Shown here: piece by piece, positions 4,647-62,758 of the stretch
Layout: each line of letters begins with the position of its first letter
Numbering within the stretch: position 1 is the stretch's first letter
Assembly (NCBI GenBank): GCA_024679955.1
Contig: JAILCQ010000010.1
Location: 15,277-79,276, forward strand
Length of the DNA stretch: 64,000 nt
From: Bacillota bacterium
GTDB lineage: Bacteria > Bacillota > Dehalobacteriia > UBA4068
Reading direction: 5' to 3'
Position numbers and translations under genes: made by a program
The notes under the pieces: model-generated
Databases searched by the model: none
Seen by the model: the letters and a program-made list of their open reading frames with translations, nothing else
Told to the model about the DNA's origin: nothing

Positions 4647-5315
4647 ATGGTAGCCAAACAAATCGCCATCGACGGCCCGGCCGGCGCGGGAAAAAGCACG
4701 GTGGCCAAAGCTCTGGCGGCCCGTTTGGGCTATTTGTATATCGATACCGGGGCCATGTACCGCTGCATCGCCTGGCTGGCTTTGCAGCAGGGAATTGACT
4801 TGTCGGATGAAGCCGCTTTGACCGCTTTGGCGGAGACGGCCCGTGTGGATTTGGTCAACGGCGCCGGCGGATATCGGGTGTATTGCAATGACCAAGACGT
4901 CAGCGAGGAGATCCGCCGTCCGCAGGTAGGGGCCGCCGCCAGCCCGGTTTCGGCGGTGGATGGCGTACGCCGGGCTTTGGTCCGGCAGCAGCAGGCTTTG
5001 GCGGCGCGGGGCTGCGTGGTGATGGACGGCCGGGATATTGGCACCAAGGTGCTGCCCCACGCCCAATGCAAGATCTTTTTGACCGCTCCCTTGTCCGTGC
5101 GGGCAGCCCGGCGGGCGTCGGAATTGCGGGACAAGGGGTTGGATGTGGATATATCACAGATCGAAGCGGAGATCGCCGAAAGGGACCGGCGGGATTCCAC
5201 CCGGGCCAATTCCCCCCTGATCCAGGCGGCGGACGCCATATATGTGGATACCGGGGATATGACCGTAGAGCAGGTGATCGATCATCTGCTGCAGTTGGCA
5301 AAACAAGGGGAGTAA
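4647..5315 (+). CDS. cmk: Cytidylate kinase
   Basis: IAIDGPAGAGKST P-loop, YLYIDTGAMYR motif. Conserved position upstream of plsC-rpsA. Confidence 0.93.
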   Translation: MVAKQIAIDGPAGAGKSTVAKALAARLGYLYIDTGAMYRCIAWLALQQGIDLSDEAALTALAETARVDLVNGAGGYRVYCNDQDVSEEIRRPQVGAAASPVSAVDGVRRALVRQQQALAARGCVVMDGRDIGTKVLPHAQCKIFLTAPLSVRAARRASELRDKGLDVDISQIEAEIAERDRRDSTRANSPLIQAADAIYVDTGDMTVEQVIDHLLQLAKQGE

Positions 5316-15445: not shown

Positions 15446-15635
15446 CGGAGATCGCATAGATATATGGAACCATACATAGAGAAGAAATGCTTACAAAGCC
15501 GTCCCGGGACGGCTTTTTCTTATGCCCGAAAAGATGCTAAGCTGCCAGCCCAAAGCTGCCTCCCGGTGGCGGAGATATCCGTCATTCGGGGCAGGGAGGG
15601 GTTGCGCCCGGCGGTCGCTTTTTCGCAAAATAATA

Positions 15636-15676
15636 AAAACGCGTGATCTTACAAGGAAGATCACGCGTTTTATAAT
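15636..15676. terminator. Bidirectional terminator between surE (+) and the minus-strand methyltransferase operon
   Basis: AAAAACGCGTGATCTT-ACAAGG-AAGATCACGCGTTTT with flanking A and T runs. Confidence 0.8.
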
Positions 15677-15715
15677 CTGCATTTTCAGCCGATCGAATAT
15701 ATCATCCCGATGGGC

Positions 15716-16819
15716 TTAGGCCAGGATTTCTTTAAAGGCAGCAACCAGTTTTTTGTTCATTTCCATGGTGCCGATGCTGATCCGGGAGCAGGTGGGGCAA
15801 TTCCAGCCGCCGCCCACGGCGATCAACAGGCCTTGACGGCGCAATTTGTCGGCGATTTCTCTGGCGTCCCGATGGAAATCCACAAAGATAAAGTTGGTGT
15901 AGGAAGGTTGGCAGGTGAAGCCCATGGCGGTAAATTCTTTGGTCAGATATTCTTTACCTTCTTTGTTCACCGCCAGAGTCTTATGCAGGAATTCTTCGTC
16001 GTCCATGGCCGCCAAAGCCGCATCCTGGGCCACACGGTTCACGGCAAAATATTCCACGGTCCGGCGCATCAATTCGATCAGGTATTCCGGTCCCATGATG
16101 TAACCGATACGGCAGCCGGCCATACCGAAGATTTTCGATAAGGTACGGATGACCAGGACTTTTTTACCGGCATTTACATATTGCAGGCTGTTGGGATAAT
16201 CGGCGGCGTCCACAAATTCCGCATAGGCTTCGTCAAATATCACGATCACATTGTCCGGAATGTCTTTCATGAATTCTTTGACTTCATCTTCTTTGACAAT
16301 GGTGCCGGTGGGGTTATTGGGGTTGCAGACCATGATCAGCTTGGTTTTGGGCGTGATGGCCGCTTTTATGGCTTTCAGATCCACGGTGTAATTTTTCAGG
16401 GGAACCGTGACCAATTTGCCGCCTACCAATTGCACCGTGGTGTTATAAACGAAGAAATGGGGGCTGCCGACGATCATTTCTTCCCCTTCGTTGAGGAAGG
16501 TTTCCGTCAGCATCAGCAAAACATTGTCTGCGCCGTTGCCAAACAATACTTGCATTTCGTCAATGCCGTTGGCTTTGGCCACTTTGCGGCGCAATTCGGT
16601 GCAGGTGGCGTCAGGATAAAGGAAAACGTCTTTGGCATGTTCCTGAATCGCCGCGATGGCTTTGGGAGAAGTGCCCAAAGGATTTTCATTGCAATTAAAA
16701 GACAATACTTCTTTTAAGTTGAATTCTTTTTTCAATTCTTCATTGGTTTGTTCCGGCAGATTGGGGTCGTTTCCCAAGATACAGGGTCTTACCAGTTCAG
16801 CGCCTTTGACATTAGCCAT
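15716..16819 (-). CDS. Class-II (HisC/CobD-family) PLP aminotransferase; last gene of the minus-strand methyltransferase transcription unit
   Basis: 367 aa with NPNNPTG and SKIFGMAGCRIGY motifs. HisC versus threonine-phosphate decarboxylase CobD cannot be distinguished by eye. Confidence 0.8.
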   Translation of the reverse strand: MANVKGAELVRPCILGNDPNLPEQTNEELKKEFNLKEVLSFNCNENPLGTSPKAIAAIQEHAKDVFLYPDATCTELRRKVAKANGIDEMQVLFGNGADNVLLMLTETFLNEGEEMIVGSPHFFVYNTTVQLVGGKLVTVPLKNYTVDLKAIKAAITPKTKLIMVCNPNNPTGTIVKEDEVKEFMKDIPDNVIVIFDEAYAEFVDAADYPNSLQYVNAGKKVLVIRTLSKIFGMAGCRIGYIMGPEYLIELMRRTVEYFAVNRVAQDAALAAMDDEEFLHKTLAVNKEGKEYLTKEFTAMGFTCQPSYTNFIFVDFHRDAREIADKLRRQGLLIAVGGGWNCPTCSRISIGTMEMNKKLVAAFKEILA

Positions 16820-19177: not shown

Positions 19178-20806
19178 TTATTCCGCTTTGATCCGGGGAA
19201 AACTCATGGCGCCGATGAACTCTTCCTGAAAATTGGGACAGTCGGCCAATTCCACATGTTCGATCTCCGCCAGCTTGTTGTAAATGTACTGCCGCTCCTT
19301 GGAGGACAGCAAGGCGATGGAGGAGCCTGCGCCGGCGGCGTTGCCCAGAGGAATGATATGATCCAAGGGAATATTGGGCAGCAGCCCCAAAACCACGGCG
19401 CTTTCCTTATTAATAAAGTTGCCGAAAGCGCCGGCCAGCAGCACGGTGTCGATATCCGCCACGGTTTTGCCGGCGGCCTGCAGCATCAGCAGGATGCCGC
19501 TGTAGATGGCCCCTTTGCCCAATTGCATTTGCCGTACGTCTTTGTGGTTGAGGACGATTTCCCGTCCGTCGTCGCCTTGGGCCAAAACGAACTCGGTGAT
19601 ATTGTCTTCGGTCTTGTGCAAACGCCATGCCAGATCCGGCGGCAATTCCTGCTGCGCCGCTTTCTGGCTGATCATTTTGCCGGAGGGCAGGATGACGCCG
19701 GCGGTGATCAGCGCCGCGGTGGCGTCGATCAGGCCGGAGCCGCAAATGCCCCTGGCTGGCGCGTCGTCTACGGTATGCACCAGCAGCTTGCCTTCGATGA
19801 CCTTGACGCTTTCAATGGCGCCGGCGGCGGCCCGCATGCCGTGATGGATGGAAGCCCCTTCAAAGGCCGGGCCGGCTGCGGTGGAGCAGGCCCAGGTATG
19901 GCCGTCGGCCTGCAGGATCACTTCGCCGTTGGTGCCCAGGTCGATGAGGATATGCACGCCGCTTTTTTCCATCAGGCGGGAGGTCAATATGCCCGCCACC
20001 AGGTCGGAACCTACATGGCCGGCGATATTCGGCAGCAAGTAGACGTCGCCTTCCGGATGGATGCGAATGCCGATCTCCGTGGCTTTTAATTCCTTGGGGC
20101 CGGTAAAGGCCGGCGTAAAGGGTATCCTGGCCAGGGTGGAAGGGGAGAGGCCCAGGAACAAATGGCTCATGGTGGTATTGCCAACCACGGTGGCTTTGCG
20201 GATTAAGTCCCGCTGGATGGAATGCCTTTCGATCAGCGTATCCGCCAGTTCGTTGAGACAGCCGATGATTTTATCGTGCATGACCTGCAGATTGCCGGGC
20301 TTTTCTTCGCAGTAGTTGATCCTGGTGATGACGTCCGCGCCGAAAACGCTCTGAGGATTGGTTTGGGCGGCAATGTCGATCAATTCTGCCTCTTTCATAT
20401 CCCACAGCATACATACCACGGTGGTGGTGCCGATATCGAAAGCCAGACCGTAGCATTGCTCTGCGGTTTTTTCCGGTACGAAATCATCGGGGAAATATAA
20501 CAGTTTGGTCTTGCGGGCGTCGGCGTTTTTCATCTTCGGCACCAGGATGCGCATATTGTCTATGACATGCACCCGGCAGGCCAGGCGATAGCCCTGATCC
20601 AATTCTTCTTGAGGGATCAGCTCCTTTTCCGCTTCGTCCGCCGGCGGGGTTTTGCCGGAAACCACCTGGATCTTGCAGCAGCCGCAAACGCCGGCCCCGG
20701 CGCAGCTGCCGTCGATATGTATACCGGCCTCGAACAATACCTGCAGCAAAGAGGTGCCTTCCGCTACCTGGCATTTGATATTATTGGGCAAAATGGTTAT
20801 TTCCAT
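19178..20806 (-). CDS. ramA: RamA-type reductive activator of corrinoid proteins (N-terminal 2Fe-2S ferredoxin + ASKHA ATPase domain)
   Basis: 542 aa. N-terminal CAGAGVCGCC…C ferredoxin cysteines. DIGTTTV and LIDLGTNGE actin-fold phosphate motifs. RBS AAAGGAG. Confidence 0.85.
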   Translation of the reverse strand: MEITILPNNIKCQVAEGTSLLQVLFEAGIHIDGSCAGAGVCGCCKIQVVSGKTPPADEAEKELIPQEELDQGYRLACRVHVIDNMRILVPKMKNADARKTKLLYFPDDFVPEKTAEQCYGLAFDIGTTTVVCMLWDMKEAELIDIAAQTNPQSVFGADVITRINYCEEKPGNLQVMHDKIIGCLNELADTLIERHSIQRDLIRKATVVGNTTMSHLFLGLSPSTLARIPFTPAFTGPKELKATEIGIRIHPEGDVYLLPNIAGHVGSDLVAGILTSRLMEKSGVHILIDLGTNGEVILQADGHTWACSTAAGPAFEGASIHHGMRAAAGAIESVKVIEGKLLVHTVDDAPARGICGSGLIDATAALITAGVILPSGKMISQKAAQQELPPDLAWRLHKTEDNITEFVLAQGDDGREIVLNHKDVRQMQLGKGAIYSGILLMLQAAGKTVADIDTVLLAGAFGNFINKESAVVLGLLPNIPLDHIIPLGNAAGAGSSIALLSSKERQYIYNKLAEIEHVELADCPNFQEEFIGAMSFPRIKAE

Positions 20807-21009
20807 GCAGAGAAACTCCTTTAAATCGTGGAACGGTGAAAAGACAGATTATGGATGCTATTTCAGTGTGCTGCCGTCAAAAAACGTTCCGAATTTATTA
20901 TTCAACATATAGTATTGTGTGTGTAAGTCTAAACTCCTGCCGGGATGCCCACTGTTTTCCATATATTTTTGCGGGGAAATTTTTTTCGGCGAAAGCGATG
21001 GATTGCCGC

Positions 21010-21062
21010 TTGTATTCCCTCCGTTTTTTTGGTAATATATTAGGGTAGATCATGTATGATCT
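21010..21062 (+). promoter_or_regulatory. Promoter (TTGTAT-17-TAATAT) with a 16-bp palindrome AGATCATgtATGATCT at the predicted start site: candidate operator of the YheO-type regulator gene
   Basis: TTGTAT 21010-21015, TAATAT 21033-21038. Perfect 7-bp inverted arms at 21047-21062. Confidence 0.5.
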
Positions 21063-21156
21063 GCTTTTGTGTCTATTTTTTTCTTCGCCATTCGACGCCG
21101 GGTCCCAAGCCCTCCGGCAGACAAAACCAACGTTTGGCGGCTGCGGAGGTATCGCT

Positions 21157-21804
21157 GTGCATGAAAAACTGAAATTCTATTTGGACTTTGCTGAGTTTTT
21201 AGGCAAATCCGTGGATAAGAATACCGAAGTCGTTTTGCATGAGACGGTAGGCGACAATCCCGGTATCGTATATATTTATAACGGATATGTCAGCGGCCGG
21301 CAGGTCGGCGCGCCGTTAAGCGAGTTTTCTCAGGAAATGGTCAACAATAAAGAAGACCATTCCCTTTACCGCGTCAATTATGCCACGGTGGCCAACGATG
21401 GCAGCATCCTTCGTTCGTCCAGTTTCTTTATCCGCGACGACGACAATACGCTGCTGGGAATATTGTGCATCAATTCCAATGTTTCCCAGTACCTGCAGCT
21501 CAGCGAACAATTGCGGGAGCTGGCCGGGCTGTCTTTTGATGAAGAAGTGTCGGACGGCGACGATACGCAAATCTATCTGACTTCCGCCAAAGATGTTATA
21601 TTGGAAAATATCCAAAGCATTTTGACTGATATGAACGTCAACACACCGCCCAACCGTTTGACCGCCGCCGAAAAACAAATCGTCATCAATGTGCTGCACA
21701 AACGGGGTATTTTCAATCTAAAGGGATCCGTGGCCAAGGTGGCGGCCATCATGTGCGTTTCCGAGCCGACGATATACCGCTATTTGCCGAAAAGCAATCT
21801 GTAA
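21157..21804 (+). CDS. YheO-type transcriptional regulator (PAS-like sensor + C-terminal HTH)
   Basis: Matches E. coli YheO blocks (VVLHE…, GYVSGRQVGAPLS, LLGILCINSNV, EKQIVINVLHKRGIFNLKGSVAKVAA…EPTIYRYL). GTG 21157 preceded by GGAGGT. Upstream ATG 21052 lies inside the promoter/operator. Confidence 0.78.
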   Translation: MHEKLKFYLDFAEFLGKSVDKNTEVVLHETVGDNPGIVYIYNGYVSGRQVGAPLSEFSQEMVNNKEDHSLYRVNYATVANDGSILRSSSFFIRDDDNTLLGILCINSNVSQYLQLSEQLRELAGLSFDEEVSDGDDTQIYLTSAKDVILENIQSILTDMNVNTPPNRLTAAEKQIVINVLHKRGIFNLKGSVAKVAAIMCVSEPTIYRYLPKSNL

Positions 21805-45075: not shown

Positions 45076-47112
45076 GTGGGCACAGAATTAATGATTTTAG
45101 CTCCAATTGCCGGCTTGATCGCGCTGTTGTTCGCTTTGTTCTTGATTGCGCGCATCACCAAAATGGACGCCGGTAACGAGCGCATGCGGGAAATCGCGGA
45201 AGCGATTCATTCCGGTGCAATGGCGTTTTTGAAACGTCAGTACAGGACCTTGATTATTTTCATTTTGGCAATCGTTGTAATTATCTCTGTGATCGGTTTG
45301 TCCACCAGCGGCGAAGGCAGCCTGAAATGGCAAACCGCCGTGGCTTTTGCCATCGGCGCTTTCTGCTCCATTCTGGCTGGTAACATCGGTATGCGCATCG
45401 CCACCAAAGCCAATGTGCGCACCGCCAATGCCGCGCAAACCAGCGGCCTGAACAAAGCCTTGAATTGCGCTTTCTCCGGCGGCGCGGTCATGGGTATGAG
45501 CGTGGTCGGTCTGGGCCTGTTGGGCTTGGGCATCGTGGTTTTGATCTTCAACAACGATTCTTCTATCGTTAACGGTTTCAGCTTCGGCGCTTCTTCCGTG
45601 GCCTTGTTCGGCCGTGTGGGCGGCGGTATCTACACCAAAGCCGCCGACGTCGGCGCGGACCTGGTGGGTAAAGTCGAAGCCGGTATCCCGGAAGACGATC
45701 CCCGGAACCCCGCCGTGGTCGCCGACAACGTGGGCGACAACGTAGGCGACGTGGCCGGTATGGGCTCCGACTTGTTTGAATCCTATGTGGGTTCCATCGT
45801 GGCCTCCATCGCTTTGGGCGCTTCCCTGGGCATCGGCGCTCACGGCGAAGGCGTTTTGGCTCCTTTGCTGATCGCCGCCATCGGCATCATCGCTTCCATC
45901 CTCGGCACTTTCTTCGTCAGCGCCAAAGAAGGCGGCGACCCGCAGAAATCCCTCAACAAAGGGAATATCACCGCTACCATTCTGTCGATCATCGGTATCT
46001 ATGCCGTGACCAAGCTGATCCTGCCGGAAACCTATGAGGCTATGGGTCATACCTATTCCAGCTTCGGCGTATTCATCGCCGCCGTTGCCGGTCTGCTGGT
46101 CGGCTTCCTCATCGGTAATGTGACCGAATACTATACTTCCGCCAAGTACAATCCCGTAAAACGGATTGCCGCTTCCTGCGAGACCGGTACGGCCACCAAC
46201 GTGATCACCGGCGTCGCCACCGGTATGGCTTCCACCGCCATCCCCATTATCCTGGTGGCTTTGGGCATTTGGGCCGCTTATCATTTTGCCGGCCTCTACG
46301 GTATCGCCATGGCCGCCGTGGGCATGCTGTCCACCACCGGTATGGTCGTCGCGGTGGACGCTTACGGCCCGATCTCCGACAATGCCGGCGGTATCGCCGA
46401 AATGTCGAAACTGCCGCCGCAAGTGCGTAACATCACCGACCATTTGGATTCCGTCGGCAACACCACCGCGGCCATCGGCAAAGGTTTCGCCATCGGTTCC
46501 GCCGCTTTGACCGCTTTGGCCCTGTTCTCCGCTTATACGCAAGCCGTTGGTATTTCCACCATCAACATTTTGGAACCCGACGTGGTCATCGGCTTGTTCA
46601 TCGGCGGTATGCTGCCGTTCTTCTTCTGCTCCATGACCATGCAATCCGTTGGCCGGGCTGCCAGTCACATGATCGAAGAAGTTCGCCGTCAGTTCCGTGA
46701 AATCGCCGGTTTGATGGAAGGCACGGCCAAAGCCGATTATGCCCGCTGCGTGGATATCAGCTGCCAGGCTGCCTTGAAAGAAATGATCGCTCCCAGCCTG
46801 CTGGCGGTCATCGTTCCGCTGCTGGTCGGTTTGACCCTTGGCCCCGCCTGCTTGGGCGGCGTGCTCTGCGGCACTTTGGTTACCGGCTTCCTGCTGGCTA
46901 TTTTCCTGGCCAATTCCGGCGGCGCCTGGGATAACGCCAAGAAATACATCGAAGAAGGCAATTATGGCGGAAAAGGTTCTCCCGCCCATGCGGCCGCCGT
47001 CAACGGCGACACCGTCGGCGATCCTTTCAAAGATACCTCCGGTCCTTCTTTGAACATCCTGATCAAATTGATGACCATCATCTCTTTGGTCTTTGCACCC
47101 TTGTTTATCTAA
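45076..47112 (+). CDS. hppA: Membrane-bound H+/Na+-translocating pyrophosphatase
   Basis: 678 aa, multi-TM, conserved DNVGDNVGD and GGAWDNAKK PPase motifs. GTG start behind AGGAGG. Confidence 0.93.
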
Positions 47113-47136
47113 TTGCCCATACATACATGGGTTTGC

Positions 47137-47169
47137 AAAAAGCCGGGCGGGGAACCGCCCGGCTTTTTG
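47137..47169 (+). terminator. Intrinsic terminator after hppA
   Basis: AAAAAGCCGGGCGG-GGAA-CCGCCCGGCTTTTT. Confidence 0.88.
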
Positions 47170-47191
47170 AGGACTATGACGGACTATAACG

Positions 47192-48376
47192 ATGAAAAGA
47201 AGCATTTATTTTGACAACAGCGCCACTACAAAAGTCTGCCCTCAGGCGGTGCAGGCCGCTTTGACGGCCATGGAGGAAGGTTTCGGCAATCCTTCTTCTC
47301 TGCATGGCCCCGGCGCGGCGGCGGCCCGGGCTTTGACCGCCGCCCGGCATGCGCTTTCCGCCTGCCTGCAGGCGAAAGAATCGGAGATTTATTTCACTTC
47401 CGGCGGCAGCGAGGGCAACAATACGGTCATCCACGGCGCGGCCGCCTATTGGGCCAACAAAACCGGCAAACGCATATTGGTTTCCGCCGTGGAGCATCCC
47501 TCGGTTTTGGAACCGGCAAAGTATTGGGCCGCCAAAGGCTATGATGTACAGAAGATCCCCGTGGACGAAAAAGGGTTGATACAGTTAGAGGCTTTGTCCG
47601 CGCTGCTGAACCGGGAGACCTGCCTGGTTTCGGTGATGCATGTGAACAATGAAACCGGCGCGGTGCAGCCTTTGGCGGAAATTGGCGAAAGGATACGCCG
47701 CCTGGCCCCGGAAGCCTTGTATCACATTGACGGCGTGCAGGCCTTTGGACGGCTGCCGGCCCAGTTATCCTTATGGCAGGCGGACGCCTATACCCTGAGC
47801 GGCCATAAAATCCACGCCCCCAAAGGCTGCGGCGCGTTGTGGCTGCGGCAGGGAAAATATTTGCCGCCCCTGATCTTAGGCGGCGGGCAGGAAAAAAATT
47901 TGCGCTCCGGCACGGAAAATATGCCGGGGATCCTGGCTTTGGCCGCCGCGGCGGAAGAGATCTGCGGCCGCATGCAGGAGAATGACACGGCCATGCGCCG
48001 GATAAAAAACGCTTTTTTGCAGGGGTTGCAGCAGGCGGATTGTCCGGAATGGCTGATCAACGGCCCGGACGTGGCGGAGGCTGCGCCGCATATCCTGAAT
48101 ATTTCTTTCCCCGGCGCCAAAAGCGAGGTTTTGCTGCATTATCTGGAAGGGGAGGGCGTTTACGTGTCCTCCGGCAGCGCCTGCTCTTCCCACAGCCAAA
48201 AGGTCAGCCATGTGCTGAGCGCCATGGGCCTGTCGCCGGGTCGCATCGAATCGGCGCTGCGTTTCAGCTTTTGTCCCTATAATACGGTGGAAGAAGCGGA
48301 GCAGGCGGCGAAGGCGACGGCGGCAGCCGTGCGGGAAGTGCAGAGGATGATGGGGGCCGGAAAAAAAAGAAGATAG
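47192..48376 (+). CDS. nifS: Cysteine desulfurase (NifS/IscS class V aminotransferase)
   Basis: IYFDNSATT N-terminus, SGHKIHAPKG PLP-lysine region, SSGSACSS active-site Cys loop. Confidence 0.9.
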   Translation: MKRSIYFDNSATTKVCPQAVQAALTAMEEGFGNPSSLHGPGAAAARALTAARHALSACLQAKESEIYFTSGGSEGNNTVIHGAAAYWANKTGKRILVSAVEHPSVLEPAKYWAAKGYDVQKIPVDEKGLIQLEALSALLNRETCLVSVMHVNNETGAVQPLAEIGERIRRLAPEALYHIDGVQAFGRLPAQLSLWQADAYTLSGHKIHAPKGCGALWLRQGKYLPPLILGGGQEKNLRSGTENMPGILALAAAAEEICGRMQENDTAMRRIKNAFLQGLQQADCPEWLINGPDVAEAAPHILNISFPGAKSEVLLHYLEGEGVYVSSGSACSSHSQKVSHVLSAMGLSPGRIESALRFSFCPYNTVEEAEQAAKATAAAVREVQRMMGAGKKRR

Positions 48377-49689: not shown

Positions 49690-50163
49690 ATGGCGGGAAA
49701 TAAAACCGGCGTAAAGATCATCTGCGAAAACCGCAAAGCCCGCCATGAATATCATTTCCTGGAACTTTTTGAGGCGGGTATCTCTCTACAGGGTACGGAA
49801 GTGAAGTCCCTGCGAGCGGGGCGCGGCAATTTACAGGACGCCTTCGCCAAAGTGGAAAACGGCGAAATGATGCTGTACAATATGCATATCAGCCCCTACG
49901 AAATGGGCAATCGCTTCAATCATCAGCCCAAACGTACCCGCCGGCTGCTGCTGCATAAATCGGAGATCCGTCACATCTACGCCAAGGTGCGGGAAAAAGG
50001 CCTGACGGTGATCCCGGTAAAGGCCTATTTTTCCGGCAGCCGGGTAAAGGTGGAACTGGCCTTGGCCCAGGGCAAAAAGCTTTACGATAAGCGCCAGGAT
50101 ATGATGGCCAAAGACGCCAGGCGGGATATGGATCGGGCGCTCAAGGAAAGGAGCAGGCAATAA
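49690..50163 (+). CDS. smpB: SsrA-binding protein SmpB
   Basis: Conserved SmpB sequence (…ICENRKARHEYHF…GISLQGTEVKSLR…). Immediately upstream of tmRNA. Confidence 0.93.
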   Translation: MAGNKTGVKIICENRKARHEYHFLELFEAGISLQGTEVKSLRAGRGNLQDAFAKVENGEMMLYNMHISPYEMGNRFNHQPKRTRRLLLHKSEIRHIYAKVREKGLTVIPVKAYFSGSRVKVELALAQGKKLYDKRQDMMAKDARRDMDRALKERSRQ

Positions 50164-50378
50164 TGGGATTGTTCAGCGGCGAACAGGCGCAGCCCGTTTC
50201 CGTGGCGGGACAGGAACTGATTTGCCCGGTATGCGGCGGCAAGCATTTTTTTCAGCGGGAGACCCAGTTGAACACCGCCGGCATGACATTTTTGGGTCTG
50301 GATTGGGCCAATGCCTGCGCGGAGAATTATTATTGCGCCCAATGCGGTTATATGTTTTGGTTTCATCCTTTGCCTTAA
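50163..50378 (+). CDS. Small zinc-ribbon-like protein (CxxC…CxxC), hypothetical
   Basis: 71 aa, CPVCGGK…CAQCGY. Start overlaps the smpB stop (TAATG). RBS AAAGGAG. Confidence 0.5.
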   Translation: MGLFSGEQAQPVSVAGQELICPVCGGKHFFQRETQLNTAGMTFLGLDWANACAENYYCAQCGYMFWFHPLP

Positions 50379-50404: not shown

Positions 50405-50753
50405 GGGGCTGTACCGGTTTCGACGGGGGATGGATTGGCGAAATAAGCGAGCCGGGATCCCACTTGCCCGTAAAACAGTGGAAACAAATTAATTTGCCAA
50501 AACAAATTCTTCTTTAGCTGCTGCTTAAGCAGTCTAACCCTGTGACCGCCTGGCCTGTAGGGTAGTTTACAGGGTCATGCATACAGGCTGCCTCCGACGG
50601 CTTTTCCCGTCCGGCGGAGGGAGAAACAGGGAATAGCGTCGATTCAGGCCGTTGGCAGCCGGTTTCGCCGCGAATACAAAGTGCCAACTGCGCTCGGAGA
50701 AGGTTTTGTGGATCCTCTTTCGGACAGGAGTTCGACTCTCCTCAGCTCCACCA
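50405..50753 (+). ncRNA. ssrA: tmRNA (SsrA)
   Basis: 5' GGGGCTGTACCGGTTTCGACGGGG…, T-arm GGAGTTCGACTCTCC and 3' CAGCTCCACCA. Candidate tag ORF GCC AAA ACA AAT TCT TCT TTA GCT GCT GCT TAA (A-KTNSSLAAA) at 50496-50528. Confidence 0.92.
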
Positions 50754-50756
50754 CAA

Positions 50757-50799
50757 AAGAACGGTAATTTTGATAGAATTGCCGTTCTTTTCTTTTTAT
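50757..50799 (+). terminator. Intrinsic terminator after tmRNA
   Basis: AAGAACGGTAA-loop-GCCGTTCTT then TTCTTTTT. Confidence 0.85.
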
Positions 50800-50893
50800 G
50801 GTAGAATGATGTGGTCAAGTAAGGTCAAGGGAGCCTGTCTGCGATGCTGGACGACTGGTAACCTATTATTTTTACAAGAAAGGAGGGTCACAG

Positions 50894-51571
50894 TTGGGTA
50901 ATGATTTGGAAAGAGCAAAAGCGCTCTTCGCTTCGATCCCACCTGATTGGGAAAAAATACAAAACGTTCTCTCTACCTCCAAATTCTCAAAGGAAGAATT
51001 GGCGCGAATAGCAATTGATCTCACGGATAACTGCTTTTGCGAATACAGGGATGCAATGGATCCCGAAGTGGAAGATGTCACGATTGACACCATGCATAGC
51101 AGCTATTTAATCGATTCTCTGCAGATACTGCTTGATTATGGCCTTGACCCCAATACCGTTGTTGAAGATGAAAATGTGATGTGGGATACCCAATGGGTCG
51201 ATGCTCCGAATGTCGGCGCTGCTGCGCTTCGGCTTCTTTTAGAAAATGGTGGCAACCCAAACCATTGGATTCCTGCAGAGCGCGAAACGCTTTTTGATTA
51301 TGTTGCATTCGAGGTCTCATATGATCAATACTCACACGAGTGGATGCACACTGTACAATGCTGGTTGGTGTTGATGGCTTTCGGCGGCTGTTGGCACGAT
51401 GGGAATATCCCACTTACAATGTTAAGTGGCAATCAAGTTGATATTCTCAAATCGTTTGAAGACTACGACTACACAATTGAGCCACTACCGCAGGAGCCGG
51501 GTAAATACGGATGCTGGATAATGCATATCTTTCGCATAGAGACTCAAGAGGAAGTTGCATGCTATAAATGA
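50894..51571 (+). CDS. Hypothetical protein with two ankyrin-like repeats (TTG start)
   Basis: TTG 50894 six nt after AGGAGGG. Motifs LQILLDYGLDPNTV and LRLLLENGGNPNHW resemble ankyrin repeat ends. No other family recognised. Confidence 0.6.
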   Translation: MGNDLERAKALFASIPPDWEKIQNVLSTSKFSKEELARIAIDLTDNCFCEYRDAMDPEVEDVTIDTMHSSYLIDSLQILLDYGLDPNTVVEDENVMWDTQWVDAPNVGAAALRLLLENGGNPNHWIPAERETLFDYVAFEVSYDQYSHEWMHTVQCWLVLMAFGGCWHDGNIPLTMLSGNQVDILKSFEDYDYTIEPLPQEPGKYGCWIMHIFRIETQEEVACYK

Positions 51572-51941
51572 GAAGAAAGTCCCCTTATCGTTCACTTTTC
51601 CCCCCTTCTGCAAGTGAACCCTAAGAGGGGGCGGTGAGTCCCCTCGGAGGATTCTCTATCAAAACGCAGTGCCTTTTCCTTTTGCCGGACGATCCTTTGC
51701 TTTCGGGCGCTTCCGGCCATCGGCATTATGAGAACCGCCGCCGCGGCGTTCTTGCCGCTGCGGCGCTTTCGTATGTTCATGGTTTTCCCCAGCTTCTCCC
51801 GGACAAATCGTTTTCACAGAGGGGCGTGGTTCAATTTGAGGTCTGCACAAGGTTTTTATGTAGATTTTTCAGCGGCTGTGCAGTATAATGTGTTCATCTA
51901 CAAATGTGAGCGGTGAAGATATGCGCGTTGCGAAGGAAAAC

Positions 51942-52691
51942 ATGGAACACGGTTTTAGTACATTGGATATACTGGAAATCCGCTTTGATGAAAACTTTCC
52001 CAAAAGCGAATATTATGCAAACCTGCCTGCCGTGAAGCAGATCCTTGAAGAAGGCGGCATGGTCCTGACAAAGCCGATCACTTTTTTCATCGGAGAAAAC
52101 GGCGCCGGCAAATCGACAATTTTGGAAGCAATAGCTGTTGCGGCAGGTTTTAACCCAGAAGGCGGGACCAGAAACTATAGCTTTTCCACCGCCGACTCGC
52201 ATTCGACGCTTCATGAGCACACCCATCTGGCGCGGGGAATCGGACGTCATGCCGACGGCTATTTTTTCAGAGCGGAAAGCTTTTACAATGCGGCGTCCTA
52301 TTTGGACGCCTTGGACAGCGATGTGCTTTTGTCCTATGGCGGGAAATCCTTGCACCAACTATCCCATGGAGAGAGCTTTTTGGCTCTTGTGGAAAACCGT
52401 TTTTCCCCGGACGGCCTGTTTATTCTGGATGAGCCGGAAGCCGCAATTTCACCCATGCGCATGCTGCGCCTGATGGCCGATATCCACGACTTGGCAAAAC
52501 AGGGCGCGCAGTTTATCATCTCCACGCATTCGCCGGTTTTAATAACCCTGCCGGATGCGGATATCATCCAATTTACCGATCAAGGCTTCGAGCATGTCAA
52601 ATATCAGGATACGGAGCATTATCAGGTAATAAAAGGCTTTCTGGCCGACCCGGAACGGATGCTGCGCATTCTTTTGGGAGAGGAAGATTGA
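51942..52691 (+). CDS. Standalone AAA_21/ABC-type ATPase (about 249 aa)
   Basis: FFIGENGAGKSTILEAI Walker A, LSHGES signature-like, LFILDEPEAAISP Walker B, FIISTHSP H-loop. ATG 51942 chosen because ORF-track start 51888 sits inside a TATAAT at 51884-51889. Confidence 0.75.
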   Translation: MEHGFSTLDILEIRFDENFPKSEYYANLPAVKQILEEGGMVLTKPITFFIGENGAGKSTILEAIAVAAGFNPEGGTRNYSFSTADSHSTLHEHTHLARGIGRHADGYFFRAESFYNAASYLDALDSDVLLSYGGKSLHQLSHGESFLALVENRFSPDGLFILDEPEAAISPMRMLRLMADIHDLAKQGAQFIISTHSPVLITLPDADIIQFTDQGFEHVKYQDTEHYQVIKGFLADPERMLRILLGEED

Positions 52692-52696
52692 GAGGC

Positions 52697-52740
52697 TGCG
52701 CCTCCTCGTTTTTCTCTGCAAGCGCGGAGGCGCTTTTGAC
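52697..52740 (+). terminator. Intrinsic terminator after ATPase gene
   Basis: GCGCCTCC-loop-GGAGGCGC then TTTTG. A second hairpin/T-run lies at about 52808-52856. Confidence 0.7.
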
Positions 52741-53016
52741 CGTTCTTCTTTAACGGCAAAGAGCCGTTAAAGGCAAAAAGGCGTCGGAGCAAACGCCCGG
52801 CTTCCGCAAAAAAACGGCTATATCGGGGATGATGGCTCGATTTAGCCGTTTTTTGTACCGTCGGAAGACGTCACACAAACATGGTTTTCTGAAACAGCCC
52901 CGGCGCGTCTCCTTTCGCGGGCCTGTCTCGCTTGGCCCTATAAGATTTTAGCGACAAGGCCGGGGGCTTGTGGCATTGCCGGCGCATGGTAAAACCGTAG
53001 GGGGAATCGGGATGCT

Positions 53017-53250
53017 TTACTTCTTTGTCATCTTATGGACGATCCATTTGATCAGCAGTATCCCTCCCGCAATGGCAGCGACCTTCAACAGAGAAACCAA
53101 AAGCGTTGTGACAATAAGCGGAACGATCTGTTCTTTGGGCATGGTCGTGTAAATGGCTATGATATCTTTTTTGGCCCACATATATACGATATAGGCAATG
53201 GCGATACTTCCGACAATAATTCTCCACGGCTCTCTTTTTGAGTTTTTCAT
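53017..53250 (-). CDS. Small (77 aa) two-helix membrane protein, hypothetical
   Basis: RBS GAGGAT, Lys-rich termini, two hydrophobic helices. AT-rich coding sequence. Confidence 0.5.
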   Translation of the reverse strand: MKNSKREPWRIIVGSIAIAYIVYMWAKKDIIAIYTTMPKEQIVPLIVTTLLVSLLKVAAIAGGILLIKWIVHKMTKK

Positions 53251-53513
53251 CTCTTATCCTCGCTAAATCCCTTGCTTTTCAACTGTCCGCTGTGAAAATC
53301 GGAAACGGTTGGCATATCTACTTACCGATTCCTAGGCTGCCCATCGCCGCGCCCCGTCTGAACGGGTTTCCGATATTATACAACAAATACCTGCTCGTTT
53401 CACCCCTCAAATCCGGAGTTGTCAACGGATTTTCCCAGTGTCATGAAAACGCCCGCGCACCCTAGGAAAAGGGGGGCTTGCCCAGCAGATACCGATAAAT
53501 CCATCCGATAAAA

Positions 53514-53542
53514 TTGACAGCGCAGCGGACGAGGAATATAAT
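53514..53542 (+). promoter_or_regulatory. Consensus sigma-A promoter (TTGACA-17-TATAAT) for buk
   Basis: TTGACA 53514-53519, 17-nt spacer, TATAAT 53537-53542. Confidence 0.7.
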
Positions 53543-53599
53543 GTTATATATTCGGCTATATTTTATGATCCAGATCAATCTTTTCGGAGGAATTCCGCT

Positions 53600-54718
53600 A
53601 TGCCTGAAAATAAAAACTTTACCCTGTTGGTTATCAATCCCGGCTCCACCTCCACCAAGGTGAGCGTCTATGACAACGAAGTTTCCCGCTTTGAGCGGAG
53701 CGTCAAACACGAGGCCCAGGAGCTGCTGCAGTTCCCGCATGTGAACGATCAGGTGCCCATGCGTTGCCGGGTGATCGAGGAGATGCTGGCCAAAGAAGGC
53801 GTGTCCCTTGCCGATATCGATGTGTTCATCGGCCGCGGCGGCAGCGCCCACACCCAGCCCGGCGGCGTCACCGTGATCGATCAGCGCCTGTATGACGACA
53901 CCGTGGCCGGCGTCGGCGGCAGCGAGCATGCCGCCAAGCTGGGCGTGATGATCGCCTGGGTGTTCATGAACCAATATCACAAGCCCGGCTATACACTGAA
54001 CCCCACCAATGTGGACGAATACTGCGACTACGCCCGCCTGACGGGCATCAAGGGGCTGTACCGCACGCCCCATTCCCATGTGCTGAACCCCAAGGCCGTT
54101 GCGGAGCATCATGCCCAGGTGCTGGGCAGGCAATATGAGGATTGCAGTTTTGTCGTCGCCCATATCGACGGCGGCGTGACGCTGACCGCCCATAAGAACG
54201 GGCGCATCATCGACGGCACTTTGGGCGCGGACGGCGACGGCCCCTTTGCGCCCACGCGTATCGGCGCTACGCCTGTGCTGGCGCTGCTGGACTACCTGGA
54301 GACCCACAGTCTGGACGAGGTGCGGGTGGCCTGCTCCCGCGGGGGCGGATTTGTCAGCCTGTTCGGCACTTCCAATTCGGATACGGTCCACGCCCTGGTG
54401 GAAAAAGGCGACCCCAAGGCCGTGTTGGTGTGGAACACCATGATTTATCAGATCTGCAAATGCGTGGGCGCGCTCAGCTGCGTGCTGGAGGGCAAAGTGG
54501 ACGCCATCCTGCTCACCGGCGGCCTGATGCGCTTTGACGACATCACCGAAGGCATACGCAAACGCTGCGGCTGGATCGCGCCCATCGTCGTTTATCCCGG
54601 CGAGATGGAACAGGACGCCATGGCGCTGCCCGTGATGAAGGTGCTGCGCGGCCAACGACAGGCCATGATCTACAGCGGCCAAGACGTCTGGCAGGGCTTC
54701 GGCGATATGGATCTTTAG
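53600..54718 (+). CDS. buk: Butyrate (short/branched-chain fatty acid) kinase, ASKHA family
   Basis: LVINPGSTSTK N-terminus and acetate/butyrate kinase blocks. No ptb adjacent. Confidence 0.85.
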   Translation: MPENKNFTLLVINPGSTSTKVSVYDNEVSRFERSVKHEAQELLQFPHVNDQVPMRCRVIEEMLAKEGVSLADIDVFIGRGGSAHTQPGGVTVIDQRLYDDTVAGVGGSEHAAKLGVMIAWVFMNQYHKPGYTLNPTNVDEYCDYARLTGIKGLYRTPHSHVLNPKAVAEHHAQVLGRQYEDCSFVVAHIDGGVTLTAHKNGRIIDGTLGADGDGPFAPTRIGATPVLALLDYLETHSLDEVRVACSRGGGFVSLFGTSNSDTVHALVEKGDPKAVLVWNTMIYQICKCVGALSCVLEGKVDAILLTGGLMRFDDITEGIRKRCGWIAPIVVYPGEMEQDAMALPVMKVLRGQRQAMIYSGQDVWQGFGDMDL

Positions 54719-61867: not shown

Positions 61868-62758
61868 TTATTGGTTTTTGCGTAAAGTGGGCGGAAGCGG
61901 AGCATCCATATCCAAATGAAAATCGTAATTGAGTTTGCTTTTGATGCGGTCGTAGAAGCAGATCTCGCCAAAGCGGATCATGCGCACTTTATCTTTGGCC
62001 GTGGCCACTTTCAGTGTGTCGTCCAGCCGCAAGTTGGAGGCGAATTGTCCGTCTATGGTCAAGGATATATGGTCGGATTTGCTGCGGCAAACGATTTCCA
62101 CATCGCTTTGGGCCGATACGATGATGGGCCGGGAAAAAAAGGAATGGGGACATACCGGCGTGATCATCATCAAATCCATTTGGCAGGCGACGATGGGACC
62201 GCCGGCGGAAAAGGAATAGCCGGTGGAACCGGTGGGCGTGGAGACGATGAGGCCGTCGGCCTGATAGGCGTTGACCAGCTTGCCGTCGATCAGCAAATTG
62301 AGGATGACCGAGCGGGCATAGTGGCTGTTTTTCACCACCAGATCATTGAAAGCGGTGGCGGAGGCCAGGACTTTCCCCTGACGCCACAACGAGCTTTGCA
62401 AAAGCATCCTTTGCTCCAGCTGATAATCTTGGGCCAGCATGCGGTCGCAGGCGCGGAAAGCGTCGGATACTTCCACTTCCGTAAGAAAGCCCACTTTTCC
62501 CATATTGACGCCCAGCAGCGGCACATTGTATTTGGACATGATCCTGCCGGAGGCCAAAACGGTGCCGTCGCCGCCTAAAACCACGGCGGCGTCCACGCCG
62601 CTGAAATCATATTTTTTTATATCGTCCAAAGTAAAGCCGTATTTTTGATCCGGATGGAACAATTCGGCCCCCTGGGCGTTCAAATAGTTGGCAAGTTTTT
62701 GGCAAAAGGCATTGGCTTCCTCGCTTCTGCCATTATAAACAATAGCTATTTTGCTCAT
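61868..62758 (-). CDS. nadK: NAD kinase
   Basis: GGDGT motif and NE/D kinase blocks. Conserved nadK-argR-recN order. Confidence 0.92.
   Translation of the reverse strand: MSKIAIVYNGRSEEANAFCQKLANYLNAQGAELFHPDQKYGFTLDDIKKYDFSGVDAAVVLGGDGTVLASGRIMSKYNVPLLGVNMGKVGFLTEVEVSDAFRACDRMLAQDYQLEQRMLLQSSLWRQGKVLASATAFNDLVVKNSHYARSVILNLLIDGKLVNAYQADGLIVSTPTGSTGYSFSAGGPIVACQMDLMMITPVCPHSFFSRPIIVSAQSDVEIVCRSKSDHISLTIDGQFASNLRLDDTLKVATAKDKVRMIRFGEICFYDRIKSKLNYDFHLDMDAPLPPTLRKNQ

Follow-up and report, generated by a model that had tools for sequence, protein, structure and literature searches.

An accessory gene islet between the tmRNA gene and buk of an uncultured Firmicute, a probable leftover of gene traffic at a tmRNA integration hot spot

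Location, extent, and composition of the islet

Between the tmRNA gene (ssrA) and the promoter of buk, this uncultured Firmicute carries a short islet of three unrelated genes, encoding an ankyrin-repeat-like protein (orfA), a solitary AAA_21 ATPase, and, in convergent orientation, a 77-amino-acid (aa) membrane protein (Table 1). We consider it probable that the islet is a lineage-specific accessory segment, left behind by gene traffic at a tmRNA integration hot spot. Rather than a single decayed island, it is a mosaic, in which two or more modules with independent distributions can be told apart.

The three small genes downstream of the tmRNA that the original prediction described are all real, but the start proposed for the region, 50405, is that of the tmRNA gene itself, and the islet proper begins at 50754. 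The composition drop noted after the ssrA terminator is borne out, since positions 50754 to 53599 have a GC content of 0.483 versus 0.548 for the window (the whole 64-kb stretch of DNA analyzed), which is the minimum among all stretches of the same length (0.08% of positions); the deviation is of moderate size, and the window has further patches of low GC content, each about 1 kb long. The proposed codon-bias analysis found all three islet genes to be atypical. Their GC content at third codon positions (GC3) is 0.456 for orfA, 0.564 for the ATPase gene, and 0.551 for the membrane protein gene, versus 0.686 ± 0.047 in 29 core genes (z of −4.9, −2.6, and −2.8, respectively), and the corresponding codon-adaptation z scores are −4.8, −2.0, and −4.8. 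Intergenic DNA makes up about 39% of the islet, and the three genes appear each to be transcribed singly.

Table 1. Coordinates of the islet, its genes, and its flanks in the window
Feature	Position	Strand	Description
smpB	49690..50163	+	Core gene, left flank; Pfam SmpB, E = 1.4e-60
71-aa four-Cys zinc-ribbon gene	50163..50378	+	Between smpB and ssrA; core, outside the islet
tmRNA gene (ssrA)	50405..50753	+	Rfam RF00023, 175 bits, model positions 1-374; ends in CCA
tmRNA terminator/promoter block	50751..50811	+	Native; hairpin 50755-50791 and T-run, with an overlapping promoter-like site
Islet proper	50754..53509		Between the tmRNA gene and the buk promoter; ~2.8 kb
orfA cassette	50835..51679	+	CDS plus 108-nt conserved 3' tail with hairpin; common to L042/L043
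orfA	50894..51571	+	225-aa ankyrin-repeat-like protein; TTG start behind AAGGAGG
Putative decayed second terminator copy (TTGCCG...TTTG)	51681..51705	+	From the pairwise alignment with L042, opposite the right arm of its terminator copy
ATPase -10 box TATAAT	51884..51889	+	52 nt upstream of the start; -35 weak (TAGATT)
ATPase gene	51942..52691	+	249 aa, solitary ABC/SMC-type; Pfam AAA_21 (PF13304)
Terminator-like hairpin cluster	52692..52854	.	Between the convergent ATPase and membrane protein genes
77-aa membrane protein gene	53017..53250	-	Two hydrophobic helices; convergent to the ATPase gene
Promoter-like site GTGAAA-17-TATAAT	53375..53403	-	Faces the membrane protein gene; 10/12
buk promoter and leader	53510..53599	+	TTGACA-17-TATAAT at 53514-53542, 12/12; right boundary of the islet
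buk (butyrate kinase)	53600..54718	+	Right flank, GC 0.616; Pfam Acetate_kinase, homologues named butyrate kinase

The left flank consists of core genes, and its gene order iscS-thiI-smpB is kept in many relatives. The small zinc-ribbon gene between smpB and ssrA, with a GC3 of 0.625 and typical codon use, has copies with 60 to 80% identity at the same place in eight other loci (L001, L002, L052 to L055, L058, and L059). The tmRNA gene is complete and forms the left anchor of the islet; ARAGORN did not report it, a false negative that the match to the full Rfam model overrides. Scanning the islet against Rfam at a permissive E value returned the tmRNA and nothing else. The terminator block that follows shares its left arm with the loci L008 and L061 and includes a promoter-like site, TTGCCG-17-TAGAAT with a TG, which faces orfA. 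On the right, the consensus promoter predicted for buk at the end of the region matches at every position scored; it is kept in relatives of buk, and homology with the loci L104 and L105 starts at 53510.

Comparison with relatives and evidence for an integration hot spot

Comparison with relatives, the proposed check for an ancestral origin, was carried out on 79 smpB-ssrA loci, all from distant relatives (SmpB identity of 92% or less, nucleotide identity of core genes of about 81%), and none of them has orfA, the ATPase gene, the membrane protein gene, or buk downstream of the tmRNA. In the nearest relative (L001, SmpB 92% identical), nucleotide homology of 80.8% extends from thiI and ends at the tmRNA CCA (50753); in all other relatives the break likewise falls at the tmRNA 3' end (50753 to 50775). 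The context of buk differs in every close relative, so the loss of synteny on the right side is weak evidence for insertion. In GCA_016648615.1, whose Buk is 90% identical, the gap between smpB and buk measures only 662 nucleotides (nt), with the presence of a tmRNA there being an assumption. Upstream synteny in this genome differs (recR-smpB), and an 86-aa open reading frame on the minus strand may be a homologue of the membrane protein gene or else a false gene call across the tmRNA.

That the tmRNA 3' end serves as an integration site was suggested beforehand, and it agrees with the recombinase genes that we found at the same position in four relatives, namely, large serine recombinases in L007 and L010, directly beside the tmRNA, and tyrosine integrases in L059 and L003. 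Downstream of the tmRNA in these recombinase-bearing loci, GC content falls by up to 0.16. Also in keeping with a hot spot, several contigs terminate 0 to 7 nt from the tmRNA 3' end. The islet itself, as anticipated, retains neither an integrase nor a flanking direct repeat that we could detect. A tblastn search with four recombinases from relatives gave a best E value of 0.42 in the islet and no match in the 64-kb window, and no Pfam integrase domain was present in the islet genes. The suggested search for an attR site, performed on both strands of the window with the 3'-terminal 100 nt of the tmRNA and adjoining flank as the query, yielded chance-level matches only (best scores of 11.5 to 13 versus a shuffle 95th percentile of 12.5).

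orfA and its putative cassette

orfA belongs to a family confined to uncultured gut Firmicutes, for which we retrieved 85 homologues of 224 to 225 aa. The TTG start proposed for it is sound in view of its ribosome-binding site and of a 90% identical homologue that begins with GTG at the identical position, while its assignment as ankyrin-like stands on two conserved motifs (LLxxGxDPN/LLLENGGNPN), a Pfam Ank_4 score of 19 bits, below the cut-off of 22.7, and weak fold matches. The AF2 model (pLDDT of 95) matches mainly ankyrin-repeat proteins (lowest E value of 0.011 in the PDB and of 0.0018 in BFVD, TM of 0.3 to 0.47) and adds a C-terminal three-stranded sheet outside any ankyrin stack. It is likely that orfA encodes a protein-binding repeat module, possibly of the immunity or anti-effector type. 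The label of an immunity gene array was considered for the homologue in L044 and rejected, the adjoining small genes having no informative families.

Homologues of orfA occur in four other contexts, all without the ATPase. Searches of phage records (50,697), plasmid records (72,556), and viral contigs (2.9 million) did not find the gene. In L042, the orfA cassette aligns with 87.6% nucleotide identity over 870 columns and has a different right-hand neighbour: the tmRNA terminator/promoter block comes next, as a copy, together with an amidohydrolase gene. This block copy, at 892 to 944 in L042/L043, is 87% identical over 54 aligned columns. The order is block-cassette in the window and cassette-block in L042, whose contig begins exactly at the right edge of the terminator block. 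No second copy of the block was found in the window, the remnant at 51681 to 51705 having no statistical support. In a folding test, the conserved 3' tail of the cassette did not stand out from shuffled sequence (z = −0.93) and so offers no evidence for a structured RNA. It may be that the orfA module is a mini-cassette, ~0.9 kb long and without a promoter, whose insertion targets the tmRNA terminator/promoter block and duplicates it. Were this true, it would represent a type of trans-mobilised cassette that targets the 3' flank of the tmRNA and hijacks a resident promoter.

The solitary ATPase, the membrane protein, and the question of defence

The standalone AAA_21/ABC-type ATPase of about 250 aa was correctly recognized: its AAA_21 score of 60.6 bits passes the 27-bit cut-off, its AF2 model has the fold of an ABC nucleotide-binding domain, and the protein is 100% identical to P0001, annotated by NCBI as "AAA family ATPase" from a metagenome-assembled genome (MAG), with its start at 51942. 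Walker A, the signature SHGE, Walker B (DEPE), and the H-loop (THSP) are invariant in 32 homologues, the invariant Walker A lysine being K57 of the 249-aa protein. The protein also has an invariant insert, GFNPEGG. Regarding the promoter of its own that the gene was thought to have, the -10 box is a consensus one, but the -35 element is weak and the promoter scan lists no such site. The family counts more than 8,000 matches in several phyla and has no conserved partner gene; homologues often lie amid housekeeping genes, and at least five contexts are without orfA. Among mobile elements we found 2 full-length phage matches, 56 plasmid records, most of which are megaplasmids or chromids, and 15 viral contigs, in several of which the gene sits close to the contig end. 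Literature on COG3910 provided nothing relevant. The protein is likely to act as an ATP-driven dimerising nucleotide-binding head, independently of a neighbouring partner gene.

The convergent membrane protein gene is likewise genuine, with 140 cluster representatives at E ≤ 1e-3, typically of 72 to 86 aa. It had no match in Pfam, NCBIfam, PADLOC, or PHROG and was absent from the 72,556 plasmid records. After these searches for mobile-element copies of orfA, the ATPase gene, and, in plasmids, the membrane protein gene, a phage or plasmid origin of the islet genes was rejected.

A role of the ATPase in defence or in a toxin-antitoxin system had been hinted at, and it would imply that the islet is a working anti-phage, abortive-infection, or toxin-antitoxin module of one or two genes, consisting of the ATPase alone or together with orfA or the membrane protein. 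We regard this as unlikely, albeit the best placed of the alternatives. The part of the hint that stood concerns the genomic neighborhoods of the closest homologues, which lie, at 79% identity, in defence islands. In one set, the ATPase gene seems to share an operon with genes for a type IV restriction enzyme, PDC-S07, and bSEFIR, and in another it neighbours a type I restriction-modification system. The ATPase also matches the PADLOC models mad3 (8.6e-20), AriA (1.6e-17), Old, GajA, and PtuA, its nearest solved sequence relatives are PtuA, AriA, OLD, and Rad50, and the top PDB fold match of orfA is an ankyrin-repeat immunity protein of a type VI secretion system (T6SS). However, every PADLOC and NCBIfam match is partial, being restricted to the P-loop and the Walker B/H-loop of proteins that are 1.3 to 2.6 times longer, and none reaches a curated cut-off; in PADLOC, residues ~57 to 105 and 143 to 262 of the 267-aa open reading frame align with profiles of 304 to 659 positions. 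Moreover, neither an effector domain (Toprim, HNH, or nuclease) nor a known partner gene occurs in the islet. PADLOC recognizes neither orfA nor the membrane protein, these two do not co-occur with the ATPase in any other locus, and the breadth of the ATPase family, with its frequent housekeeping surroundings, also argues against such a module.

The type IV toxin-antitoxin system AbiE consists of an adjacent AbiEi antitoxin and a nucleotidyltransferase-type AbiEii toxin. It was rejected as a candidate here, as the ATPase is of the ABC type, with no nucleotidyltransferase match among the families listed, and its neighbours are orfA and a two-helix membrane protein, without a PADLOC match. Nothing in the islet can be assigned to a known defence or toxin-antitoxin system. 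The ATPase may be defence-related all the same, judging from where its homologues reside. For the two readings jointly, i.e., orfA as a mini-cassette and the ATPase as an uncharacterised single-gene factor of defence or stress, our expectation is low, slightly below that for a working defence module.

Origin of the islet

Of the idea that the region is a decayed island, the integrase-less foreign remnant is supported, but the single island is not. Conserved pairing of orfA with the ATPase, or of the ATPase with the membrane protein, was rejected because these pairs never co-occur in other loci. The genes would most likely have arrived by horizontal transfer through the hot spot that the tmRNA 3' end provides. 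We suppose that two or more such events took place and that integrases mediated them. The recombinase genes and att repeats would then have been lost, and the remaining cargo would now be fixed in the chromosome. Accretion may have proceeded in tandem, with orfA as the latest arrival, since it is the gene closest to the tmRNA and the one with the most deviant GC3.

The islet could instead be ancestral to the lineage and have been lost or replaced in the sampled relatives, its low GC content reflecting short, weakly expressed genes and long spacers. The distance of the relatives sampled, the different gene order to the right of ssrA in all of them, and the large intergenic share are compatible with such a history, and the 88% nucleotide identity of orfA in L042 is close to the divergence of core genes (83 to 88% for buk), as would befit vertical descent within a genus. 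Nevertheless, the deviations in GC3 and codon use sit inside coding sequences, each gene is patchily distributed in unrelated contexts, homology breaks exactly at the tmRNA 3' end, where relatives have their recombinases, and smpB and buk lie next to each other in GCA_016648615.1, all of which makes ancestry improbable. An assembly artefact, in which contigs of two organisms were joined at the conserved tmRNA sequence, is a very remote prospect: the source is a MAG, and many metagenomic contigs from relatives break at the tmRNA 3' end, marking it as a branch point of the assembly graph, but the flanks are alike in GC3 (~0.66 to 0.74 on the left; 0.66 to 0.81 on the right, for buk, sigma factor, asparaginase, and recN) and in codon use, the adjacency of smpB and buk recurs independently in GCA_016648615.1, and the tmRNA terminator is of the type common to L008 and L061.

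Read as an accessory segment of lineage-specific origin, the islet is by itself one more case of foreign genes dumped at the tmRNA 3' end, in a cargo-only end state. It is a well-bounded case, with the tmRNA CCA as its left edge and the buk promoter as its right edge, and it illustrates how single-gene modules that travel independently of one another can together make up such a leftover. The islet further draws attention to two widespread uncharacterised families, the solitary ABC-type ATPase of about 250 aa found in defence islands and the 225-aa ankyrin-like family.

Comparison with known systems

As for the individual genes, orfA resembles the Tli immunity proteins of the Enterobacter cloacae T6SS (PDB 7ubz/9cys; lipase effectors) in its size of ~225 to 230 aa and its ankyrin-like helical repeats, and these are its top PDB Foldseek match; the match is weak, however (E = 0.011, TM of 0.33, 15% identity), and no effector gene lies nearby. 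The ATPase shares Walker A, the signature, Walker B, and the H-loop with PtuA (Septu/retron), AriA (PARIS), GajA (Gabija), OLD, AbiL, and MAD3 (MADS). In contrast to these, it is about half their size and lacks the coiled-coil or dimerisation insert, the Toprim, and the nuclease domain. The known systems require partners or fusions (PtuB HNH, AriB Toprim, and GajA Toprim with GajB), whereas the islet ATPase has no adjacent PtuB, AriB, GajB, or AbiLii, and its NCBIfam scores are 35.7 bits for PtuA and 27.3 bits for MAD3, versus cut-offs of 500 and 420 bits, respectively.

The orfA module is comparable to the promoter-less cassettes of integrons, since it holds one gene in ~850 bp, sits directly behind a resident promoter, and has varied neighbours across genomes. 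It differs from them in that no attC-like site, GTTRRRY core, or integron integrase was recognised, and in that repetition concerns the tmRNA terminator/promoter block and not attC.

For the islet as a whole, the features expected of genomic islands that we observed are adjacency to a t(m)RNA 3' end, atypical composition, and absence at the site in relatives; a recombinase gene and an attR direct repeat, both sought in the 64-kb window, were not found. The tmRNA gene is a frequent integration site of islands, and in Dehalococcoides the ssrA gene carries tandem islands, some of them fixed and signature-less (PMC3146451; PMC11915505). Like the ssrA islands of Dehalococcoides (PMC3146451), the islet lies directly 3' of a single-copy tmRNA gene, has atypical composition, is strain or lineage specific, marks a break in synteny at the end of the tmRNA gene, and may have grown by tandem accretion, and the relatives of this organism carry at the site serine recombinases of ~510 aa (DsiB/CcrB class) or tyrosine integrases. 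The difference is that the islet is immobile as it stands, and in this it matches the fixed, signature-less end state described for those islands (PMC3146451).

Composition and gene content of the islet

Between the tmRNA gene (ssrA) and the promoter of the butyrate kinase gene buk, the window carries an islet (50754 to 53509) with three genes, orfA, an ATPase gene, and a convergent membrane gene, all of which are genuine. The AT-rich stretch originally noted after ssrA was confirmed: the GC content of 50754 to 53599 is 0.483 versus 0.548 in the window, the lowest among all windows of equal length. The shift is present within the coding sequences themselves, where third-position GC (GC3) is 0.456 for orfA, 0.564 for the ATPase gene, and 0.551 for the membrane gene (z = -4.9, -2.6, and -2.8) versus 0.686 ± 0.047 in 29 core genes, and where the codon-adaptation index, trained on the window's core genes, gives z values of -4.8, -2.0, and -4.8, respectively. 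The genes of the left and right flanks share a common codon usage, which speaks against a chimeric assembly join at the islet. Further patches of about 1 kb with GC below 0.50 lie at about 15600 to 16500, 20200 to 21700, and 62000 to 62700. A 702-aa open reading frame (ORF) at 45097 to 47205 (minus strand) also has an atypical GC3 (0.535) and is without a Pfam match; its homologues (32 to 42% amino acid identity) lie upstream of iscS in several relatives.

Features of the smpB-buk region (window coordinates)
Feature	Position	Strand	Remarks
smpB	49690-50163		Upstream of tmRNA; Pfam SmpB, 1.4e-60
Zinc-ribbon gene	50163-50378		71 aa, four Cys; between smpB and ssrA; start overlaps smpB stop codon (TAATG)
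tmRNA (ssrA)	50405-50753	+	Rfam RF00023, 175 bits, model 1-374; complete, CCA end
Hairpin and T-run	50755-50791		17 pairs; directly after tmRNA
orfA	50894-51571	+	225 aa; TTG start preceded by AAGGAGG
ATPase gene	51942-52691	+	249 aa
Cluster of terminator-like hairpins	52692-52854		
Membrane gene	53017-53250	-	77 aa; convergent
buk promoter	53514-53542		TTGACA-17-TATAAT, perfect match
buk	53600-54718		Downstream of the perfect promoter

ARAGORN called no tRNA or tmRNA in the whole 64-kb window; given the full-length Rfam match at 175 bits, its silence on the tmRNA is a false negative, and this tmRNA seems to escape its heuristics. The zinc-ribbon gene is typical in both GC3 and codon adaptation, and at least eight relatives have a copy (60 to 80% identical) at the corresponding position. 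The smpB-zinc ribbon-ssrA succession looks like a clade-specific arrangement, possibly linked to trans-translation.

At E ≤ 1e-3, orfA has 85 homologues; the majority are 224 to 225 aa long with E values of 1e-56 or better, and none of the 85 has a significant Pfam assignment. A 90%-identical homologue starts at the same position with GTG instead of TTG. Two conserved motifs, LLxxGLDPN and LRLLLENGGNPN, are ankyrin-repeat-like, with Pfam Ank_4 scoring 19 bits, under its cut-off of 22.7 bits. In the AF2 model (pLDDT 95.3, pTM 0.93), a three-stranded sheet comes after a helical repeat, and the fold matches of the model, all weak, are mainly ankyrin-repeat proteins. The top match in the PDB is an immunity protein of ankyrin type that belongs to an E. 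cloacae T6SS lipase (E = 0.011, TM 0.33; weak), and the best viral one has E = 0.0018. In another contig (L044, 4547 to 8678), a 78%-identical homologue stands last in a run of ten small, closely packed genes without annotation, one of which encodes a Cys_rich_CPCC protein, with a MoxR-like AAA ATPase and a DUF2201 protein encoded upstream of the run. The membrane protein has two hydrophobic helices and 140 homologous cluster representatives at E ≤ 1e-3, typically of 72 to 86 aa, with no family assignment across the libraries searched.

The islet in relatives

When we scanned species-representative genomes and JGI metagenomes for SmpB, we obtained 79 loci. Many of them keep iscS-thiI-smpB-(zinc ribbon) as the upstream gene order; none has orfA, the ATPase gene, the membrane gene, or buk in the downstream sequence at hand, which reaches at most 10 kb. 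L001, the relative nearest to the window (SmpB 92% identical), can be aligned with it from thiI (80.8% nucleotide identity) as far as the terminal CCA of the tmRNA at 50753 and not a single base beyond, where L001 carries other, low-GC genes; homology likewise breaks at 50753 to 50775 in all remaining relatives. An ancestral islet, which would appear as the same genes in the same place in relatives, is thus not what these loci show.

On the other side, four contigs with 88 to 94% identical Buk (L099, L100, L104, and L105) have nothing but the promoter and coding sequence of buk in common with the window (53510 to 54714; coding sequence 83 to 88% identical in nucleotides), and in two of them (L104 and L105), where the promoter is alignable, homology begins at 53510. 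Left and right of buk, each of these contigs has flanks of its own (pyk, MaoC dehydratase, and others); buk in this group occurs in shuffled gene contexts. A fifth contig (GCA_016648615.1; Buk 90%) has recR-smpB and, after 662 nt, buk, versus 3,436 nt between smpB and buk in the window. The sole ORF of this interval, of 86 aa on the minus strand, would most simply be a spurious ORF over a putative tmRNA, as gene callers place them; the window has such an ORF, of 83 aa on the minus strand, over its tmRNA (50567 to 50818). ssrA and buk would then be adjacent, with no space for any islet gene. Alternatively, the ORF could encode a membrane-gene homologue. Under either reading, orfA and the ATPase gene are missing from this interval.

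The tmRNA 3' end as an integration site

Across this clade, the tmRNA 3' site is an active hot spot. Among seven relatives with at least 6 kb downstream of the tmRNA, four have a site-specific recombinase nearby: large serine recombinases of 511 and 519 aa in Desulforamulus putei (L007) and D. aeronauticus (L010), which overlap the tmRNA end or lie within about 135 nt of it, and tyrosine integrases in L059 and L003. GC falls after the tmRNA in all four (0.52 to 0.40, 0.52 to 0.39, 0.47 to 0.39, and 0.60 to 0.44). Several metagenomic contigs stop 0 to 7 nt from the 3' end of the tmRNA, and some more within 500 nt of it, the pattern expected where strains differ. In D. aeronauticus, an exact 39-nt direct repeat (4912 to 4950 and 5098 to 5136, 186 nt apart) comprises the last 14 nt of the tmRNA and 25 nt of flank, its second copy lying at the edge of the 519-aa serine recombinase gene; it is likely an att duplication, in a locus that includes a run of N.

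As originally noted, no integrase or direct repeat accompanies the islet. By tblastn with four recombinases from relatives, we detected no integrase gene or remnant in the islet (best E = 0.42) and no match in the 64-kb window. When we looked for a partial ssrA 3' duplicate (attR), neither the 3' end of the tmRNA nor its terminator had a second copy at any other place in the window. With these two defining features of a mobile island missing, the islet can be called only a remnant.

Mosaic structure

The original prediction of an acquired accessory islet at a tmRNA hot spot is supported, but its single decayed island gives way to a mosaic, made up of two or more modules. For orfA, homologues were found in four further contexts, none with the ATPase gene adjacent, and ATPase homologues occur in at least five, which share no genes and never adjoin orfA or the membrane gene. 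With 79%-identical ATPase homologues, the window has only the ATPase coding sequence in common.

The orfA module, including 108 nt past the stop codon (50835 to 51679), recurs as a unit, 87.6% identical, in two contigs, L042 and L043. In L042, the next 54 nt directly after it copy, at 87% identity, the post-tmRNA sequence of the window, a block of CCA, terminator hairpin, and T-run. In both, an overlapping promoter-like extended -10 element comes after the block, and in L042 an amidohydrolase gene is next. This block represents the tmRNA's native terminator, since two relatives (L008 and L061) have its left arm directly after the tmRNA. The order is thus tmRNA-block-orfA in the window and orfA-block-amidohydrolase in L042, whose contig starts exactly at the position that corresponds to the block's right edge (50812). 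An orfA cassette between two block copies would be the simplest reconciliation, the left side of L042 being unassembled; in the window, loss or overwriting would have removed the distal copy, and 51681 to 51705 is a very weak candidate remnant. Such a terminator-block-flanked mini-cassette is improbable. The 3' tail of the cassette (51572 to 51679; L042, 764 to 893) forms a long imperfect hairpin, folding no better than shuffled sequence (z = -0.93), and its L042 copy has an additional 21-nt insertion with repeated GAACCCCC motifs.

The ATPase and the question of defense

The ATPase matches an NCBI protein (P0001, AAA family ATPase [Firmicutes bacterium], 115.8-kb MAG contig) at 100% and passes the Pfam AAA_21 threshold (60.6 bits). 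Its Walker A, SHGE signature, DEPE Walker B, and THSP H-loop, together with a family-specific GFNPEGG segment, are unchanged in 32 homologues, and the AF2 model (pLDDT 85.7) has a generic ABC nucleotide-binding-domain fold. The nearest solved sequence relatives (PtuA, AriA, OLD, Rad50, and SMC) match in the P-loop and Walker B regions only.

The suggestion of a defense or toxin-antitoxin context stays a hint. PADLOC matched the ATPase to 160 ATPase models (top: mad3, AriA, Old, GajA, and PtuA), every match being limited to two short motif regions of proteins 1.3 to 2.6 times longer, and orfA and the membrane protein to none; the NCBIfam scores for PtuA (35.7 bits) and MAD3 (27.3 bits) fall far short of the curated cut-offs of 500 and 420 bits. 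The islet holds no effector domain or partner gene, and no known defense system can be called in it. On the other hand, the closest two homologue contexts are defense islands. In L031 to L036, only 4 nt separate the homologue from a downstream gene for a full-length type IV methyl-directed restriction enzyme (2e-107), in the order WYL-Macro-x-x-ATPase-mREase-PDC-S07-bSEFIR; in L037 to L041, the homologue faces a type I restriction-modification system with HigBA. Homologues on plasmids have mixed contexts, and phages and viral contigs seldom carry the family. Taken together, these sequence-based observations leave a defense-related role of the family possible but rather doubtful, and a solitary, uncharacterized defense ATPase is unlikely. 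At L031 (4757 to 9830; also L032 to L036), an apparent operon, flanked by the WYL regulator and bSEFIR genes, comprises a Macro-domain protein, two small ORFs, the 248-aa ATPase homologue, the restriction enzyme, and PDC-S07, and could be an uncharacterized multigene defense locus.

Comparison with known tmRNA-associated islands

The islet is another case of a well-known kind, probably acquired genes at a tmRNA site. The tmRNA gene is a frequent integration site for islands (PMC11915505), and in Dehalococcoides, serine-recombinase islands pile up in tandem downstream of ssrA, some of them fixed and without signatures (PMC3146451). The recombinases found at the tmRNA in the clade of the window agree with the island integration known at ssrA (PMC11915505; PMC3146451).
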